Shown here piece by piece: positions 21,504 to 61,254 of a DNA stretch of 64,000 bases (its first letter is position 1; each line of letters opens with the position of its first letter). The position numbers and the translations under genes were made by a program. The notes beneath the pieces were generated by a model, which did not search any database, was not told the origin of the DNA, and saw nothing but the letters and a program-made list of their open reading frames with translations. This DNA comes from Candidatus Krumholzibacteriia bacterium (lineage in GTDB: Bacteria; Krumholzibacteriota; Krumholzibacteriia; JAJRXK01): contig JAOZPE010000002.1 in NCBI GenBank assembly GCA_029932915.1, positions 7,546 through 71,545 on the forward strand, read 5' to 3'.

Positions 21504-22016
21504 TCAGACCTCGAATTCCTTGAAGATCTTGGCCAGCGCGTTGCAGACCGGGCAGCGGTCGGGCACCTCGTCGCCGACGACGGTGTAGCCGCAGATGGGA
21601 CACACGAAGACCTTCACCTCGGAGATGTCCTCACCGGCATCGACGGCCTTCTTGGCCATGGCATAGAGCTCGCTGTGGATCTTCTCCGCCTCCAGCGCGT
21701 AGTCCATGCTCTGGACCGCTTTCTTCTCGCCCTGAAGTTCGGCCACCGCCTTGTAGGCCGGGTACATCTCGTCGATCTCGAAGTCTTCGCCCTTCTTCGA
21801 TTCCACGAGGTTCTCGGTCGTGTCGCCGATCCCGTCGAGGGCCTTGAGATGGTTGGTGGCGTGGACGAGTTCCGCGTAGGCGATGGCGCGGTAGAGGTTG
21901 GCGATACGGACCTTGCCCTCCTTCTCGGCCACGTCCGCGAACGCCATGTACTTCATGTGCGCCTGGCTCTCTCCGGCGAAGGCCGCCTTCAGGAATTCCT
22001 CGGTCATCGGATGCAT
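21504..22016 (-). CDS. rbr: rubrerythrin (diiron ferritin-like domain + C-terminal rubredoxin-like CxxC..CxxC)
   Basis: E..H diiron ligand pattern (ESQAHMKY, YAELVHATNH) and C-terminal VCPICGYTVVGDEVPDRCPVCNA. The start may be Met4 at 22007. Confidence 0.88.
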   Translation of the reverse strand: MHPMTEEFLKAAFAGESQAHMKYMAFADVAEKEGKVRIANLYRAIAYAELVHATNHLKALDGIGDTTENLVESKKGEDFEIDEMYPAYKAVAELQGEKKAVQSMDYALEAEKIHSELYAMAKKAVDAGEDISEVKVFVCPICGYTVVGDEVPDRCPVCNALAKIFKEFEV

Positions 22017-22070: not shown

Positions 22071-23621
22071 TCAGCCCCGCCAAGAGGGCAGAATCTCCTC
22101 GACCTGGGGAAGGAAGGCTCCTTCCTCCACCAGTTGCGAGATGGCTTCGATGTCGGGCGCGAAGTAGCGGTCGCTCTCGTAGAACGGCACCCGCTTGCGA
22201 ATGAGCGAGGTGACTTCGCGCAGCTGGGGGGAAGTCTCATGTGGCCGGTGGAAGTCGATGCCCTGACATGCCGCCAACAGTTCGATCGCAACGACCCTGG
22301 CGGTGTTGGCGGCCATGCGTGACAAACGACGCGCCCCATGCGCCGCCATGCTCACGTGATCCTCCTGGTTGGCCGAAGTCGGAACGCTGTCCACCGAAGC
22401 CGGATGTGAGAGCTGGCGGTTCTCGCTCACCAACGAGGCGGCGGTCACGTGGGCGATCATGAAGCCCGAGTTCACCCCGCTGTCCTCGACGAGGAAGGCC
22501 GGCAGGCCGCTCATCTTCGGATCGGTCAACAGGGCGATCCGCCGCTCGCTGATCGAGGCCATCTCCACCAGGGGCAGGGCGAGCACATCGGCGGCGAAGG
22601 CCACCGGCTCGGCGTGGAAGTTGCCCCCGCTGATCACCTCGCCGGTGTCCGGGAAGACCAGTGGATTGTCGGTGACCGCGTTGGCCTCGATCACCAGACG
22701 CTCGGCCGCGAAGCCGATGGCATCCAGGCAGGCGCCCATCACCTGGGGCTGGCAGCGAAGGCTGTAGGGATCCTGCACCCGGTCGCAGTCGCGATGGCTG
22801 GCGAGGATGTCCGAACCCTCCACCAGTCTCAGGTAGAGTCTCGCCACTGCGATCTGGCCGGGCTGTCCCCGCAGCTCCTGGATGCGCGGATCGAAGGGGG
22901 CGAGGCTGGCCTTGGCCGCATCGATGCTCAGGGCACCGGCCACGATGGCCGCGGCCAGGTCGTTCTCCGCGGCGAAGAGGCCGCGCAGGGCCAGCGCGGT
23001 GGAGACCTGGGTGCCGTTGATCAAGGCCAGGCCCTCCTTCGGTGCCAACTCCATCGGAGCGAGGCCTGCCTCGGCGAGTCCCTCGGCCGCCGGCAGCTGG
23101 CGGCCCTGCCGGCGCAGGTGGCCTTCACCCAGGAGGGTGGCGGCCAGGTGGGCCAGCGGCGCCAGATCGCCCGATGCGCCGACCGAACCCTGCGAGGGAA
23201 CCACCGGCAGCCAACCGGAGTTCAGCAGGGTGAGCAGCGCTTCGATCACCTTCCATCGCACACCGCTGTGGCCGCGGGCCAGGCTGGCGATCTTCAGGGC
23301 CAGCACCAGCCGGACGGTCGCATCGTCCAGGGCTTCGCCCACACCGCAACTGTGCGAGAGCAGGAGATTGCGCTGGAGCAGGGAGAGCTGGTCGGAGGGG
23401 ATGCGGGTCTGGGCCAACAGGCCGAAGCCGGTGTTCACCCCGTAGGCGGTGCGCTCCTCCGAGAGGATGCGCTCGACCACTTCGCGTCCCTGCTCGACCG
23501 CTTCGCGGGCCCCATCCTCCAGTTCCACCGGGGGCGAGAGCTCGACGATACGGCGCAGCTCGGCCAGGTTCATCCGGCCCGGCCGCAGCACCACCTCCGG
23601 CGTGGAGGAATTCGTCTTCAT
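22071..23621 (-). CDS. hutH: histidine ammonia-lyase
   Basis: 516 aa. N-terminus [19 protein letters not shown]-forming triad [14 protein letters not shown]. Family-wide collinearity. Confidence 0.9.
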
Positions 23622-55966: not shown

Positions 55967-57001
55967 ATGCAAACGATCTGGTTCTGTTTCGTTGCCTTCA
56001 TGATCGTCATGTACGCGCTGCTCGACGGTTTCGACCTGGGCGCGGGCATTCTCCACCGCTACGTCGCGCGCAGCGATGACGAGCGTCGTCAGGTCCTCCG
56101 TTCCATCGGGCCGGTATGGGACGGCAACGAGGTGTGGCTGCTGGCGGCCGGGGGCACCCTGTACTTCGCATTCCCCCTGCTGTACGCCAGCGCCTTCAGC
56201 GGCTTCTACCTGCCGTTGAACATGGTGTTGTGGATGCTCATGGGACGCGGCATCGCCATCGAGCTGCGCTCGCATCTGGAGGGTCCGGTCTGGCGTCCTC
56301 TGATGGACAGCATCTTCATGATCAGTTCCGCCCTGTTGGCGGTGTTCTTCGGGGCCGCGCTGGGGAACGTGGTCCGCGGCGTGCCCCTGAACGAACAGGG
56401 GCGCTTCTTTGCTCCGATGTGGATGGGAGGGGGGCATGAGGTCGGCGTCCTCGACTTCTACACGGTGACCGCGGGGGTGACCGTCCTGGGTGCGCTCGCC
56501 CTGCACGGCGGCACCTGGCTCAACCTGAAGACCACCGGAGCCATGCAGGAGCGGGCCCGGCGGGCCATCGCGGTGCTCACCCCCATCCAGATGGTCCTGA
56601 CCGTCCTGGTGAGCATCTACACCTTCGTCGTCCAACCGGTGATCCTGCAGCACATGACTTCCCAGCCGCTGCGCTGGGTCTTCCCCCTGCTGGCGGTGGC
56701 GGGTCTGGTGATGCTCGTGATCTTCCCCCGGCAGGGAAGGGAGAGGGCGGCGTTCTACGCCTCGTGCGCCTACCTGGCAGGGATGCTCGGGGCCCTGGTG
56801 GCCGGCGTCTATCCGCTGGTCTTGCCGGCTTTGGGCGACATCTCCCGCAGCCTGGACATCTACAACGCCTCGGCCCCGGTCTCGGGGCTGCGCATCGGGC
56901 TCATGTGGTGGATCCCGGGCATGATCATCGTCCTGGCCTACTCGAGCTGGGTGTACCGGGTCCACGCGGGGAAGGTCCCGGCCGAAGGCGGACCCTACTG
57001 A
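55967..57001 (+). CDS. cydB: cytochrome bd ubiquinol oxidase subunit II
   Basis: ATG 55967 (MQTIWFCFVAFMIVMYALLDGFDLGAGIL), the canonical CydB N-terminus. Overlaps the cydA stop. Confidence 0.88.
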   Translation: MQTIWFCFVAFMIVMYALLDGFDLGAGILHRYVARSDDERRQVLRSIGPVWDGNEVWLLAAGGTLYFAFPLLYASAFSGFYLPLNMVLWMLMGRGIAIELRSHLEGPVWRPLMDSIFMISSALLAVFFGAALGNVVRGVPLNEQGRFFAPMWMGGGHEVGVLDFYTVTAGVTVLGALALHGGTWLNLKTTGAMQERARRAIAVLTPIQMVLTVLVSIYTFVVQPVILQHMTSQPLRWVFPLLAVAGLVMLVIFPRQGRERAAFYASCAYLAGMLGALVAGVYPLVLPALGDISRSLDIYNASAPVSGLRIGLMWWIPGMIIVLAYSSWVYRVHAGKVPAEGGPY

Positions 57002-57145
57002 GCGACGGCCAGAGGGGGCGGCGGATGGCTCGGTGGGGTGCCCGCCGTCTCGCTGCCGACGCTTGGTTCAAGGGCCGGCGAAGGATCTTCGCCGGCCCTC
57101 GTCGTGCCGGGAAGGGTGGAGGCAAGCGCCTCGGAAGGGAACGCT

Positions 57146-58678
57146 TCAGTACACCCGCAGCTCGCCCACCTCGGCCTGGACCGCCTGCAGGATCGCGCCG
57201 CTTCTGACCTCGGCCGCCATGGTGTTGTGATCGTGGAAGAGGGGCCGGTCCTCGTCCAGGTGGGGCACCTTGGCGCGGATGGCTGCGTGGGCGGCCCGGG
57301 TTCCCCGCCCGAACTTCCAGTCGCGGAAGTCGAGGGCCTGGGCGGCGGCCAGCAGCTCGATGCCCAGCACCCCGTTGGCGTTCTCGAGGATCTGGCGGGT
57401 CTTCAGCGCCGTGTTCATGCCCATGCTCACGAAGTCCTCCTGGTCGGCGGCGGCGGGGATGCTCTGGGTGCTCGCCGGAGTGGAGAGGATGCGCTGCTCG
57501 ACGATGAGCATGTCGGCGGTGTACTGGCTGAGCATGAGCCCGCTGAACATGCCGGCGCCCTTGGTGAGGAAGGCGGGCAGGCCGACCGACAGGTTGGGAT
57601 TCAACAGGCGGTTGAGCCGCCGCTCGCTCAGCACGCACACCATGGCCACGCTCGCCCCGAGCATGTCCGTGGGCAGCGAGACCGGGGTTCCCTGGAAGTT
57701 GGCCCCGGTGAGGACGGTGTCCTCGTCGGGCAGGAAGATGGGGTTGTCACCGACGCCGTTCAGCTCGATCTCGATCTGCTCGCGCGCCCAGCGCAGGGCG
57801 TCGCGGGCGGCTCCGATCACCTGCGGAGTGCTGCGCATGCTGTAGGCGTCCTGCACCTTCACCTCGATGCGGCCCTCGACGGTGAGATCGCTGCCCTCGA
57901 TGATCTTCATCAGGTTCTCGGCCGAGGCGATCGCTCCGCGGAATCCCCGCAGCTCGTGCAGGCGGCGGTCGTAGGGTTTCAGGTTCGCCCCCAACGCCTC
58001 CAGGCTCATCGCGGCGGCGATCTCGGCCTGGCGCAGCCAGGCCTCGGTGTCGTGCACGACCAGGGCGGAGATGGCGGTCAACAGGTTCGAGCCGTTGATC
58101 GAGGCCAGACCGTCGCGCGCCTGCAATCCGGGGGGCTCGATACCGGCGCGCTCGAGCGCCTCGCGGGTGGGCATGCGCTCACCCTGGTAGAACGACTCGC
58201 CTTCGCCCATCAGCGAGAGGGCGATCTGGCTCATCGGCGCCAGGTCACCGCAGGCGCCGACACTTCCCTTCTCGCTGACCACCGGGGTGACGCCCTTGTT
58301 CAGCATCTCCACGTAGGTCTGGGGGATGATCGCCCGGCAGCCGGAGTTCCCGTGGGCGTGGACGTTGATCCGGCCGAGCATCGCGGCACGGACGTGCTCG
58401 ATGGGAGCCGGATCGCCGATCCCGGCCGAGTGGTTGTAGACCAGGTAGCGTTGGAAGCGTTCGACCTGTTCGGGCTCGAGCGCGACGCTGGCCAGCTCGC
58501 CGATGCCCGTGTTGACTCCGTACATGACCTCGCCCTGGTCGATCTTCTTCTCGAGCAGATTGCGGCACTTCTGGATTCTCGCCACCGCGTCGGGGTGCAG
58601 CTCGACCTTCTCGCCGTGGCGGGCGACGGCCACGAGCTTCTCGATGCTCAGATCGGATCCAGTGATGATGACGGTCAT
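57146..58678 (-). CDS. HAL/PAL-family aromatic amino acid ammonia-lyase (second copy; cofactor triad Ala-Cys-Gly)
   Basis: ATG 58678 with GGAGAC RBS. MTVIITGSDLSIEKLVAVARHG. GSVGACGDLAPMS at positions 142-144. 510 aa. The track ORF 57146..59272 carries a non-coding 5' extension. Confidence 0.85.
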   Translation of the reverse strand: MTVIITGSDLSIEKLVAVARHGEKVELHPDAVARIQKCRNLLEKKIDQGEVMYGVNTGIGELASVALEPEQVERFQRYLVYNHSAGIGDPAPIEHVRAAMLGRINVHAHGNSGCRAIIPQTYVEMLNKGVTPVVSEKGSVGACGDLAPMSQIALSLMGEGESFYQGERMPTREALERAGIEPPGLQARDGLASINGSNLLTAISALVVHDTEAWLRQAEIAAAMSLEALGANLKPYDRRLHELRGFRGAIASAENLMKIIEGSDLTVEGRIEVKVQDAYSMRSTPQVIGAARDALRWAREQIEIELNGVGDNPIFLPDEDTVLTGANFQGTPVSLPTDMLGASVAMVCVLSERRLNRLLNPNLSVGLPAFLTKGAGMFSGLMLSQYTADMLIVEQRILSTPASTQSIPAAADQEDFVSMGMNTALKTRQILENANGVLGIELLAAAQALDFRDWKFGRGTRAAHAAIRAKVPHLDEDRPLFHDHNTMAAEVRSGAILQAVQAEVGELRVY

Positions 58679-58870
58679 GATGTCTCCGGAAGGAAAGAGG
58701 AACGATCCTGCCTCGCCGCGGCGGCCGACGACGGGCCTGCCCCATGCCGCCTGCGATGCCCCGAGCCTAGTCAGTCGGGCTCCGCTGGACAAGTGCGCGT
58801 CTTCGGGGAGCATGGTATGATGAAAGCAGTCCCCCGACCCTTTCCCCTTCTGAGTTGAAAGGATTCCCCC

Positions 58871-59620
58871 ATGCACAAGCTGGTGCTGCTTCGGCACGGC
58901 CAGAGCACCTGGAACCTCGAGAACCGGTTCACGGGCTGGACCGATGTCGACCTGACCGAGCAGGGAGTCGATGAAGCGATCCGTTCGGGCCGTCTGTTGC
59001 TCGAAGAGGGCTACGATTTCGACGTGATCTACACCTCCGTTCTCAAACGGGCGATCCGGACGATGTGGCTGGTGATGGATGAGATGGACCGCATGTGGCT
59101 GCCCGTGGTCCGTCACTGGAGGCTCAACGAACGCCACTACGGGGCCCTGCAGGGCCTGAACAAGGCCGAGACGGCGGAGAAGATGGGCCAGGAACAGGTC
59201 ATGATCTGGCGGCGCAGCTATGCCACACCGCCGCCGCCGCTCGATCCCAGCGATGAACGTTGGCCGGGGCACGACCCGCGCTATGCCTCACTGGCGCCCG
59301 AGGACATCCCCCGCACCGAGAGCCTCGAGCTGACGGTGAAACGCTTCCTGCCGCTGTGGACCGAGCAGATCGCCCCGGTGGTGAAGTCCGGCCAGCGCGT
59401 TCTCATCGTGGCCCACGGCAACAGTTTGCGTGCCCTGGTCAAGTTCCTCGACGACATCTCCGAGGAGGAGATCGTCGGACTCAACATCCCCACCGGCGTT
59501 CCCCTGGTCTACGAGCTCGATGACCAGCTCCAACCCATCCGGCACTACTACCTGGGCGATCCCGACGAAATCGCGCGCGCGGCCCAGGCGGTGGCCGATC
59601 AGGCCAAGAAGAAGCCCTAG
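58871..59620 (+). CDS. gpmA: 2,3-bisphosphoglycerate-dependent phosphoglycerate mutase
   Basis: [29 protein letters not shown] and RHYGALQG match GpmA. 249 aa. Confidence 0.92.
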
Positions 59621-59796
59621 GAGCCTGTGGGAACCCGGCTACCGGGGCCGATGTATCTTGATGAAGAGAGCCGCCGCTGGCGGAATGCCGGCGGCGGCCG
59701 GCTGTGCGGGAGCACAATGGCCCTTGCCAGTCGCCGGGCCTATCGACCATCTTGTGCCGGACACCTGGCCACCTTTCGATCCGGAGGACTTTCTTC

Positions 59797-61254
59797 ATGT
59801 CATCCCCGAGAACCCTTCGCTGGACCCTGTCGCTGGCGTTCCTCTTCTTCTTCGTCCACACCTCGGCCGCAGTGGCCCAGACGAGTTGGGCCGTGGCCCA
59901 GCGTTCGGACGAAGCCCTGACCCGATTCGTGGGCAAGCTGCTGCCGCACGCGGACAAGGTCCCCGGCGCCGACGATGCCGGAGCGGTCATCCTCTACAAG
60001 CAGCACTTCCTCAAGAGCCTGGAGAAGAACTACCAGGTCTGCACCAACATGGTGTTCCTGGTGAAGAACCCCGCGCAGGTGGGTGAGGACCTCACCAGGC
60101 CGTACATGGACGGCGATGGGCACTACCCCGAGCGCAACGCCTTCATCCTGCGCGATGGGAAGTTCCTCCGCTACGACGAGTCGAAGGCGGAGGTCGTCGT
60201 CGCCACCGACGACATCCACCGCGACCGCATCCTCTTCGACCTGGCTCCCCTGAAGAAGGGTGACGTGGTGGGCTGGTCGGTCGTCGAGTCCCACGAGGGA
60301 ATGGTGGAACCGTGGATGGGACCGGCTGCCGATCGCTATCCGGTGGTCTACGTGAGTGTCCGCATCCTCAACGACGGCTCGTCGAATTTCGCCCTGGAGG
60401 GCAATGCCTTCCCCGAGAAGGCGGTGTCGATCAAGACCGAGGGTCTGGTGAACGACCGGCCCGAGCAGTGGAAGGCGCGCAGTGGTGAACTGGCCGCGAT
60501 CGAGAACCTTCCCGCTACCGAGCCCTTCCCCGTATCGACCCCCGTCTTCGCCATCGCCCTGACCGAGCGGCACGCGGACGATCCCAACGGTTACCGCGGA
60601 TGGGTTCCCATGGAGGGATGGGCCACCGTGGCCGCCCAGCTCAGCGGAGCCCGGGAGCAGATCCTCAAGGACGCCGGTTCGCTGGACATCCAGGCTTCGG
60701 CCCTGACCACCGGTCTGGACGACGATGCCGCCAAGGAGAAGGCGGTGTGCGAATACGTACGGGATCAGATCAAGCTGCTCGACGGCGATGAATACGACCG
60801 CACCGGCATGCGGACCCTCAAGGAGGTCATGGCGGCCAAGGAGGCGACCCTCTTCGAGAAGGACGCGCTCATGATCGCCCTGCTCGACGCCGTCGGTATC
60901 GATGCCCAGTTCGCCGCGGTGCGGCCCCAGTCGTGGGGTCCCCTCGACCAGGTGAGCAAGACCTTCATTGCCTTCGGGGAGATGGCGGTGCGCTGTGGCG
61001 GCGACGAACCACGCTGGTACGATCCGGCGGTGGAGGGGCTCGAAGCGGGAACCCTTCCCGCCGATTGGGGCAAGGCTGAGGTTCTCAGTCCCAAGACGGG
61101 TCTCCTGGAGGAAGTGCGGGCCTACCGCAAGAAGGTCGCGACCGAGAGCTACGCCAAGTCGGGCAAGGTCGATCCGCGCCGCCTGATGGAGGAAGCCGAG
61201 GCCCATGCGAAGGCACAGGGCTGGTACCGCATCGAGACTCTCAGCGCCCCCTAG
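59797..61254 (+). CDS. secreted hypothetical protein, paralog A of a tandem pair
   Basis: GGAGGA RBS, ATG 59797. Signal peptide MSSPRTLRWTLSLAFLFFFVHTSAAVAQ. Shares ...SWAVAQRSDE... and ...WYRIETLSAP with the next gene. Confidence 0.5.
   Translation: MSSPRTLRWTLSLAFLFFFVHTSAAVAQTSWAVAQRSDEALTRFVGKLLPHADKVPGADDAGAVILYKQHFLKSLEKNYQVCTNMVFLVKNPAQVGEDLTRPYMDGDGHYPERNAFILRDGKFLRYDESKAEVVVATDDIHRDRILFDLAPLKKGDVVGWSVVESHEGMVEPWMGPAADRYPVVYVSVRILNDGSSNFALEGNAFPEKAVSIKTEGLVNDRPEQWKARSGELAAIENLPATEPFPVSTPVFAIALTERHADDPNGYRGWVPMEGWATVAAQLSGAREQILKDAGSLDIQASALTTGLDDDAAKEKAVCEYVRDQIKLLDGDEYDRTGMRTLKEVMAAKEATLFEKDALMIALLDAVGIDAQFAAVRPQSWGPLDQVSKTFIAFGEMAVRCGGDEPRWYDPAVEGLEAGTLPADWGKAEVLSPKTGLLEEVRAYRKKVATESYAKSGKVDPRRLMEEAEAHAKAQGWYRIETLSAP

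Follow-up and report, generated by a model that had tools for sequence, protein, structure and literature searches.

In the 64,000-nucleotide stretch of contig JAOZPE010000002.1 of the Candidatus Krumholzibacteriia bacterium assembly GCA_029932915.1 (positions 7,546 to 71,545 of the forward strand; hereafter referred to as the window), two genes encode lyases of the histidine ammonia-lyase (HAL) family. One of them is a canonical hutH. The other encodes a 510-residue protein whose tripeptide Ala142-Cys143-Gly144 (ACG) is aligned with the Ala-Ser-Gly (ASG) of canonical HALs, and it is this second lyase, referred to here as the ACG lyase, that we describe. The canonical HutH and the ACG lyase share 38% identity over 500 residues, and their genes lie 35 kb apart. 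The data presented below make it likely that the ACG lyase is a working histidine ammonia-lyase, converting L-histidine to trans-urocanate and NH3, and that it belongs to a distinct and widespread subfamily in which the 4-methylideneimidazole-5-one (MIO) cofactor would be formed autocatalytically from Ala-Cys-Gly.

The translation of the ACG lyase gene is uninterrupted over its 510 codons and stop, starts at an ATG preceded, 4 nt upstream, by a GGAGA ribosome-binding site (RBS), and contains the peptide GSVGACGDLAPMS. A 708-aa open reading frame (ORF) in the mechanically generated list was rejected as the coding sequence; it is a 5′ extension of the lyase ORF that runs antisense into the neighboring gpmA-like gene, and the homologues, with 507-515 aa, span 99-100% of the 510-aa form. 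The initial annotation had placed an Ala-Cys-Gly tripeptide, encoded by GCC TGC GGT, at residues 142-144, and the translation confirmed both the residues and their codons.

Three independent assemblies, each from a different sample (JGI 3300005265, ENA ERZ23491052, and Logan SRR21545388), encode the same protein with the TGC codon, and only one synonymous base change was seen, in one of the three. The Cys therefore stands against the possibility, raised in the initial annotation, that resequencing would reveal Ser at this codon. In addition, the residue is shared by most relatives of the protein: 114 of the 120 best database homologues (72-87% identical) carry ACG and the remaining 6 carry ASG. 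That the codon reflects faulty sequencing or assembly, or that the gene is a hutH copy turning into a pseudogene, has nothing but the odd residue itself in its favor, and the probability of either is practically nil in view of the agreement of the three assemblies, the intact ORF with its RBS, the frequency of ACG among the homologues, and the strong purifying selection observed across phyla. The Cys codon is no sequencing error, and an artefactual origin is already refuted.

The source labels of the homologues include Krumholzibacteria, Elusimicrobiota, Cloacimonadota, Ignavibacteria, Planctomycetota, and Myxococcota, the nearest named relative being a Candidatus Krumholzibacteria metagenome-assembled genome (MAG) at 79% identity. 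A pattern scan with one genome per species revealed relatives in at least 597 species. Counts of genome loci given from here on refer to the best 80 of these species genomes, all of them MAGs, with 68-76% identity; they include Acidobacteriota, Anaerolineales, Bacteroidales, WOR-3, and MAGs labelled Thermoplasmatales. In this set, 69 genomes carry ACG and 11 carry ASG. A neighbor-joining tree rooted with the canonical paralogue placed Cys at the root, with about nine Cys-to-Ser switches by parsimony, a rough estimate in which the number of switches is not rigorous. The Cys143 codons of the clade are TGC or TGT, and the Ser codons belong to both the AGC/AGT (8) and TCN (3) classes. Since each of these classes is one substitution away from TGY, at least two origins of Ser, and probably many, have to be assumed. 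Altogether, these sequences indicate that Cys143 is a character of the clade, its apparent ancestral and majority state, and not a peculiarity of one genome.

Among 1.84 billion cluster representatives, the clade falls into few clusters, and its next relatives are at most 48% identical. ACG was present in 7 of the 150 best cluster representatives. Two of the ACG-bearing representatives, P0236 (650.6 bits) and P0187 (550.6 bits), pass the hutH equivalog model TIGR01225 (cut-off, 539.15), so Cys has arisen independently inside ordinary HutH too.

Some of these cluster representatives show further variation around the active site. P0187 and P0229 form a separate ACG group with Arg and Leu at the positions of Gln277 and Tyr280, which on sequence grounds is an independent origin of Cys with a putatively altered carboxylate-binding region. 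In P0232, P0245, and P0246 the MIO tripeptide has been lost (Tyr plus a two-residue gap) and Leu is found at the Tyr280 position, with His83 and Glu414 kept; these three proteins resemble the MIO-less trimethylammonia-lyases of the ergothionase type.

The ACG lyase matched the Pfam family PF00221 (Lyase_aromatic) with 557.4 bits, its residues 10-469 covering positions 1-466 of the 466 in the profile, and passed the HAL subfamily model NF006871 of NCBIfam (548.7 vs a cut-off of 524). Two HAL models were the top matches among the NCBIfam models, whereas those for tyrosine aminomutase (TAM), phenylalanine aminomutase (PAM), tyrosine ammonia-lyase (TAL), and phenylalanine ammonia-lyase (PAL) scored at least 130 bits lower. 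The protein failed the TAM model TIGR03832 (393.3 vs 501), the PAM models TIGR04475 and TIGR04473 (365.3 vs 800 and 161 vs 1250, respectively), and the PAL/TAL models TIGR01226 (215.5 vs 519) and FlxA (325.9 vs 700). Nor does it carry the F/H-L selectivity motif and the NQD(V)xS of PAL/TAL enzymes, reading NH and QEDF instead. By sequence, the closest solved structures were the HAL of Thermoplasma acidophilum (7TQR, E = 3e-98), followed by SgTAM and by the HAL of Pseudomonas putida. The AlphaFold2 model of the protein (pLDDT 86.6, pTM 0.90) showed pLDDT values below 50 for residues 54-65 of the Tyr53 loop, as expected of a mobile loop. All top nine structural matches of the model in the PDB were HALs (TM 0.88-0.92), and the best superpositions were obtained with the HALs of Trypanosoma cruzi, P. 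putida, and T. acidophilum (TM 0.89-0.92).

The family alignment showed that the ACG lyase keeps Y53, H83, N195, Q276, Y279, R282, F328, and E414, the counterparts of Y53, H83, N195, Q277, Y280, R283, F329, and E414 of P. putida HAL, together with G144, D145, and M382. All eight HAL catalytic or substrate residues were invariant in alignment A1, and so were Ala142, Gly144, Asp145, and Phe328 in the clade alignment. Mutation of any of these eight residues in HAL abolishes or lowers activity (PMC11432326), and the active-site residues of HAL hold the substrate by its carboxylate and by N-tau and N-pi of its imidazole and abstract its beta-proton (10.1101/2025.08.13.670108). The initial annotation had proposed an inspection of the substrate-selectivity residues, and this revealed that the imidazole-binding His83 and Glu414 are conserved along with the other HAL residues.

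To place the clade in its genomic context, ORFs within 10 kb on each side of the 80 loci were clustered all against all. No neighbor was broadly common across the loci, and only lineage-restricted ones were found: hutU in 5 loci, a canonical HAL in 7, hisS in 5, and SusC/D in 4. Association with hut genes was observed in 5 of the 80 loci and also in L006 and L007 (hutH-hutU-hutI, hutC-like, FtcD). Elusimicrobia and Chloroflexota have clade members within hutH-hutU-hutI or hutH-hutU clusters. The Elusimicrobia locus L042 has the gene order ACG lyase, hutU, hutI; its hutU scores 965 bits with TIGR01228 and falls under both thiourocanate hydratase cut-offs, and its hutI scores 411 bits with TIGR01224. 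The HAL gene is also followed by hutU, with FtcD adjoining, in L006 and L007, and L069, from Anaerolineales, has HAL and hutU downstream of a GntR/HutC-like regulator gene. In five loci assigned to Bacteroidota, hisS lies directly upstream of the clade gene (TIGR00442, 404 bits). The informative exceptions to the general lack of context are thus all linked to histidine, and they point to histidine for the function of the clade.

Flanking genes of a further kind were seen in four Bacteroidota loci, where a long ORF pair lies downstream of the clade gene and its N-termini are SusC/SusD-like, as judged by eye only. The Bacteroidota-assigned loci with hisS and/or SusC/D-like flanks are L056, L060, L062, L072, L073, and L017.

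In the tandem loci, the canonical ASG HutH partners passed TIGR01225 with 681 and 609 bits. In Cloacimonadota the ACG gene lies 14-72 bp upstream of the canonical HutH gene, and in Bacteroidales both genes are adjacent in the reverse order. The seven tandem loci mirror the two paralogues of the window, and the recurrence of the HutH/ACG pairing in two phyla suggests non-redundant roles or hetero-oligomers. Coordinates of these loci and of the features of the window are collected in Table 1.

Table 1. Features of the two lyase genes in the window and tandem loci of clade members (tandem coordinates are those of the respective locus).
Feature	Coordinates	Strand	Basis
Canonical hutH, tripeptide context GSVGASGDL	22071..23621	-	TIGR01225 707.9 vs cut-off 539.15
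Second HAL-family lyase coding sequence (510 aa + stop), ACG-clade member	57146..58678	-	PF00221, NF006871, AlphaFold2 model
ATG start of the ACG lyase	58676..58678	-	
GGAGA RBS of the ACG lyase	58683..58687	-	
Tyr53, catalytic base, in the flexible inner loop YGVNTGIGE	58520..58522	-	alignment
Asn82-His83, clade form of the Ser-His motif (His kept, Ser to Asn)	58430..58435	-	alignment
Ala142-Cys143-Gly144 (GCC TGC GGT), presumed MIO-forming tripeptide	58247..58255	-	codon read-out
Asp145 (GAC), directly after the tripeptide	58244..58246	-	codon read-out
Gln276-Asp-Ala-Tyr279-Ser-Met-Arg282, equivalent to P. putida Q277, Y280, R283 (carboxylate binding, active-site maintenance)	57833..57853	-	alignment
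Phe328-Gln329, Phe equivalent to HAL F329, Gln in place of His; signature GANFQG[ST]P	57692..57697	-	alignment
Gln413-Glu414-Asp415-Phe416, Glu414 (imidazole N-pi) kept, Phe for the His of NQEDHVSM	57431..57442	-	alignment
Divergent intergenic region lyase/gpmA-like (192 bp), holds the lyase RBS	58679..58870	.	sequence
His_Phos_1/gpmA-like gene	58871..59620	+	
Tandem locus L008	3097..6176		
Tandem locus L009	120..3209		
Tandem locus L012	8724..11793		
Tandem locus L015	4746..7862		
Tandem locus L018	8948..12011		
Tandem locus L056	4455..8156		
Tandem locus L062	8036..11521		

With regard to the cofactor, maturation of the ACG lyase would involve backbone cyclisation, with the nitrogen of Gly144 attacking the carbonyl of Ala142 and loss of water, and the side chain of Cys143 would leave as H2S, instead of the water normally released from Ser. 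Cys and Ser are interchangeable at position 143 within the clade, and what the two residues have in common there is beta-elimination to the exocyclic methylidene. The mature cofactor should be chemically the same as in ASG enzymes. Work by Langer, Lieber and Retey in Biochemistry in 1994 reportedly found that the S143C mutant of P. putida HAL matures to a fully active enzyme, which would imply elimination of H2S. The Cys of that protein was engineered into a canonical HAL as a point mutation, whereas the Cys of the clade is natural and appears to be the ancestral and majority state. The initial annotation had left two readings of the Cys side by side: H2S elimination yielding the same cofactor, or an altered function, either as an aminomutase or on another aromatic substrate. 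The former is favored by the alternation of Cys and Ser within one tight clade, by the presence of ACG in canonical clusters, and by the retention of Gly144, Asp145, and Phe328. The latter found no support, in view of the conserved HAL active-site residues and of the orthologues in hutH-hutU-hutI clusters. We thus infer MIO formation by H2S loss and L-histidine activity for the window protein, which in this genome is a stand-alone second copy beside the canonical HutH and probably an isozyme.

Several observations weigh against the assignment of the ACG lyase as an ordinary histidine ammonia-lyase. The protein narrowly missed the hutH equivalog model TIGR01225 (524.8 vs 539.15), as did the clade members of L042 (512.7) and L008 (509.1). 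Positions conserved in at least 95% of the clade and in at most 10% of the other family representatives were considered clade-specific, and 43 such positions were found. Several of them lie beside catalytic residues (S82N, T197S/Q198N, L281M/C283S, H329Q, T409A/S410A, and H416F), and others include H151Q, P135C, V114C, and Cys38. As a result, the "substrate switch" motif Ser-His described for HAL (PMC11432326) reads NH, and the His329 and His416 that flank catalytic residues are Gln and Phe. N82 is present in 100% of the clade vs 1% of the other family representatives, and the position of Gln329 is occupied by His in 114 of 119 of the latter; with H329Q, the signature GANFQG[ST]P of the clade is as in PALs. 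The Cys after Arg283 in canonical HALs is Ser in the clade. Furthermore, 75 of the 80 loci, and the window as well, have no hut gene adjacent to the lyase gene, the clade member stands in tandem with a canonical HutH in seven loci, which would be odd if it were fully redundant, and no biochemical data on any clade member were found in the literature searched. Of the two circumstances that together the initial annotation would have taken to refute its reading, one applies, ACG being both common and unremarkable within its clade; the other, a tight grouping with ordinary HutH, does not, as indicated by the 38% identity, the TIGR01225 score, and the clade-specific positions. By sequence it appears clearly distinct from characterised HALs. 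In addition, conservation across phyla reaches at least 97% at 205 of the 510 positions, a strikingly high value for a catabolic enzyme.

These features could also be accommodated by a diverged HAL-like MIO enzyme acting on a modified histidine (e.g., N-methylated) or as a histidine 2,3-aminomutase, a possibility that we regard as unlikely. Such a function would explain the retention of the clade member beside a canonical HutH, and it would agree with the distance from the canonical paralogue, the TIGR01225 score, the changes close to catalytic residues, the high conservation across phyla, and the occurrence of both types in tandem or in the same genome. An additional point in its favor is Glu61 of the Tyr loop, which aligns with Glu71 of SgTAM. 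On the contrary, none of the residues in contact with histidine at its carboxylate, N-tau, or N-pi is altered, orthologues are the sole HAL in hutH-hutU(-hutI) clusters whose hutU scores as a true urocanase, and the TAM and PAM equivalog models remained far under their cut-offs. An aminomutase assignment through Glu61 was rejected, since this Glu is also present in representatives with the ordinary HAL signature and is not diagnostic, and Glu414, absent in TAMs, is kept. Of similarly low probability is a role of the clade as a specialised second histidine-family lyase, which might be an isozyme with another kinetic or redox niche, for instance one adapted to anoxic or reducing conditions, an enzyme with a substrate range shifted towards modified histidines, or a hetero-oligomeric partner of the canonical HutH. 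Maturation by H2S loss and the four clade cysteines would matter for an isozyme of that kind, and in Cloacimonadota and Bacteroidales the partner in a hetero-oligomer would be the adjacent canonical HutH. A specialised lyase would explain both the extreme conservation and the retention beside canonical HutH.

Far less probable is that Cys143 is not eliminated, that no MIO is formed, and that the thiol, perhaps joined by C38, C114, and C135, makes up a metal or redox site or provides another catalytic group. The four clade-specific cysteines (C38, C114, C135, and C143) are all present in 102 of 120 members, and the family does have MIO-less members (ergothionase and histidine betaine lyases). 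Against such a role, Ser replaces Cys143 in 5-14% of the clade with no other Cys changing alongside (pattern CCCSS), each clade-specific Cys can be dispensed with individually, being absent from some members, and in the window protein the clade Cys135 is itself replaced by Ser. Moreover, the known MIO-less lyases lack the tripeptide and need a trimethylammonium leaving group, whereas Ala142, Gly144, Asp145, and Phe328 do not vary in the clade.

The closest known systems show both similarities to and differences from the ACG lyase. HutH (EC 4.3.1.3; P. putida 1B8F/1GKM, T. acidophilum 7TQR, and Geobacillus kaustophilus) shares with the ACG lyase its fold (TM ~0.9), a similar length, and the same catalytic residues, the numbering being almost exactly that of P. 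putida HAL, and clade orthologues fill the hutH slot of hutHUI clusters. The differences are Ala-Cys-Gly in place of Ala-Ser-Gly, the clade motifs NH, GANFQG(S/T)P, and DQEDFVSM in place of SH, GGNFHGEP, and NQEDHVSM, and an identity of only 35-38% to characterised HALs and to the HutH of its own genome. SgTAM (2OHY/2RJR), the second-best group by sequence and fold, shares with the ACG lyase the His residue of its SH-type motif, and in both proteins a Glu lies eight residues C-terminal to the catalytic Tyr. It differs in having insertions and NQDVVS for QED(H/F)VS, with no equivalent of Glu414; the ACG lyase, unlike SgTAM, has no secondary-metabolite context. The MIO-less trimethylammonia-lyases (ergothionase 6S7J and the Shewanella histidine betaine lyases) belong to the same superfamily and have the same imidazole- and carboxylate-binding residues. 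These enzymes, whose substrates are trimethylammonium compounds, no longer have the tripeptide, whereas the ACG lyase keeps an MIO-competent Ala-X-Gly-Asp (X = Cys/Ser) and is cytoplasmic, with no flavocytochrome reductase link.

According to reviews and recent papers, MIO is formed from Ala-Ser-Gly in all characterised aromatic amino-acid lyases. In the open-access library searched, we found no relevant paper on a natural Ala-Cys-Gly, on S143C, or on variants of the MIO motif, although the natural variant may be described elsewhere. The clade, which comprises hundreds of mostly uncultured species from many bacterial phyla as well as MAGs labelled Thermoplasmatales, is best described as an uncharacterised, widespread HAL subfamily with a putative natural Cys precursor of MIO. 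If this is true, it would provide natural evidence for a precursor of the form Ala-(Ser/Cys)-Gly, whose maturation would release H2S when the middle residue is Cys. ACG should be allowed for when MIO enzymes are annotated by motif or sought by genome mining. Clade members are named only generically because the curated hutH equivalog model misses the clade by a few bits. The surprise for the specialist is moderate, since the same mature cofactor is expected; of wider interest is the reason why many genomes keep the ACG type beside a canonical HutH.

As for the surroundings of the ACG lyase gene in the window, the initial annotation had described it as lying beside cydAB, divergent from gpmA and outside any hut operon, and this description was borne out by the Pfam calls and by tblastn. 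The lyase gene is convergent with cydAB (PF01654 and PF02322), where cydB ends at position 57001, and divergent from the His_Phos_1/gpmA-like gene; tblastn searches for urocanase and FTCD gave no match in the whole 64-kb window. Two relatives (L088 and L089; 87% and 78% identity) retain the divergent lyase/gpmA-like pairing. The adjacency to cydAB is not conserved, as an M61 peptidase takes the place of cydAB in one of these two relatives. The cydAB/gpmA adjacency is lineage synteny among relatives at 78-87% identity, and no functional link. A consensus scan of positions 56900..59000 for sigma-70-like promoters and terminators yielded none above the expectation from shuffled sequence. Downstream (3′) of the gpmA-like gene, a 516-aa ORF (59704..61254, plus strand) showed no Pfam match at E <= 1e-4. 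Pfam-less genes, which may correspond to this ORF, were called in this region both in the source contig and in the 87%-identity relative.

The canonical character of the other lyase gene, also stated in the initial annotation, agrees with its ASG tripeptide context and with its TIGR01225 score. Like the ACG lyase gene, the canonical hutH has no hutU, hutI, or FTCD neighbors, so neither HAL belongs to a classical hut operon within the 64 kb. A class I/II aminotransferase ORF lies upstream of it on the minus strand (23618..~24988, PF00155), with the stop of this ORF and hutH sharing 4 nt, and a rubrerythrin gene follows it at 21504..22016, also on the minus strand.

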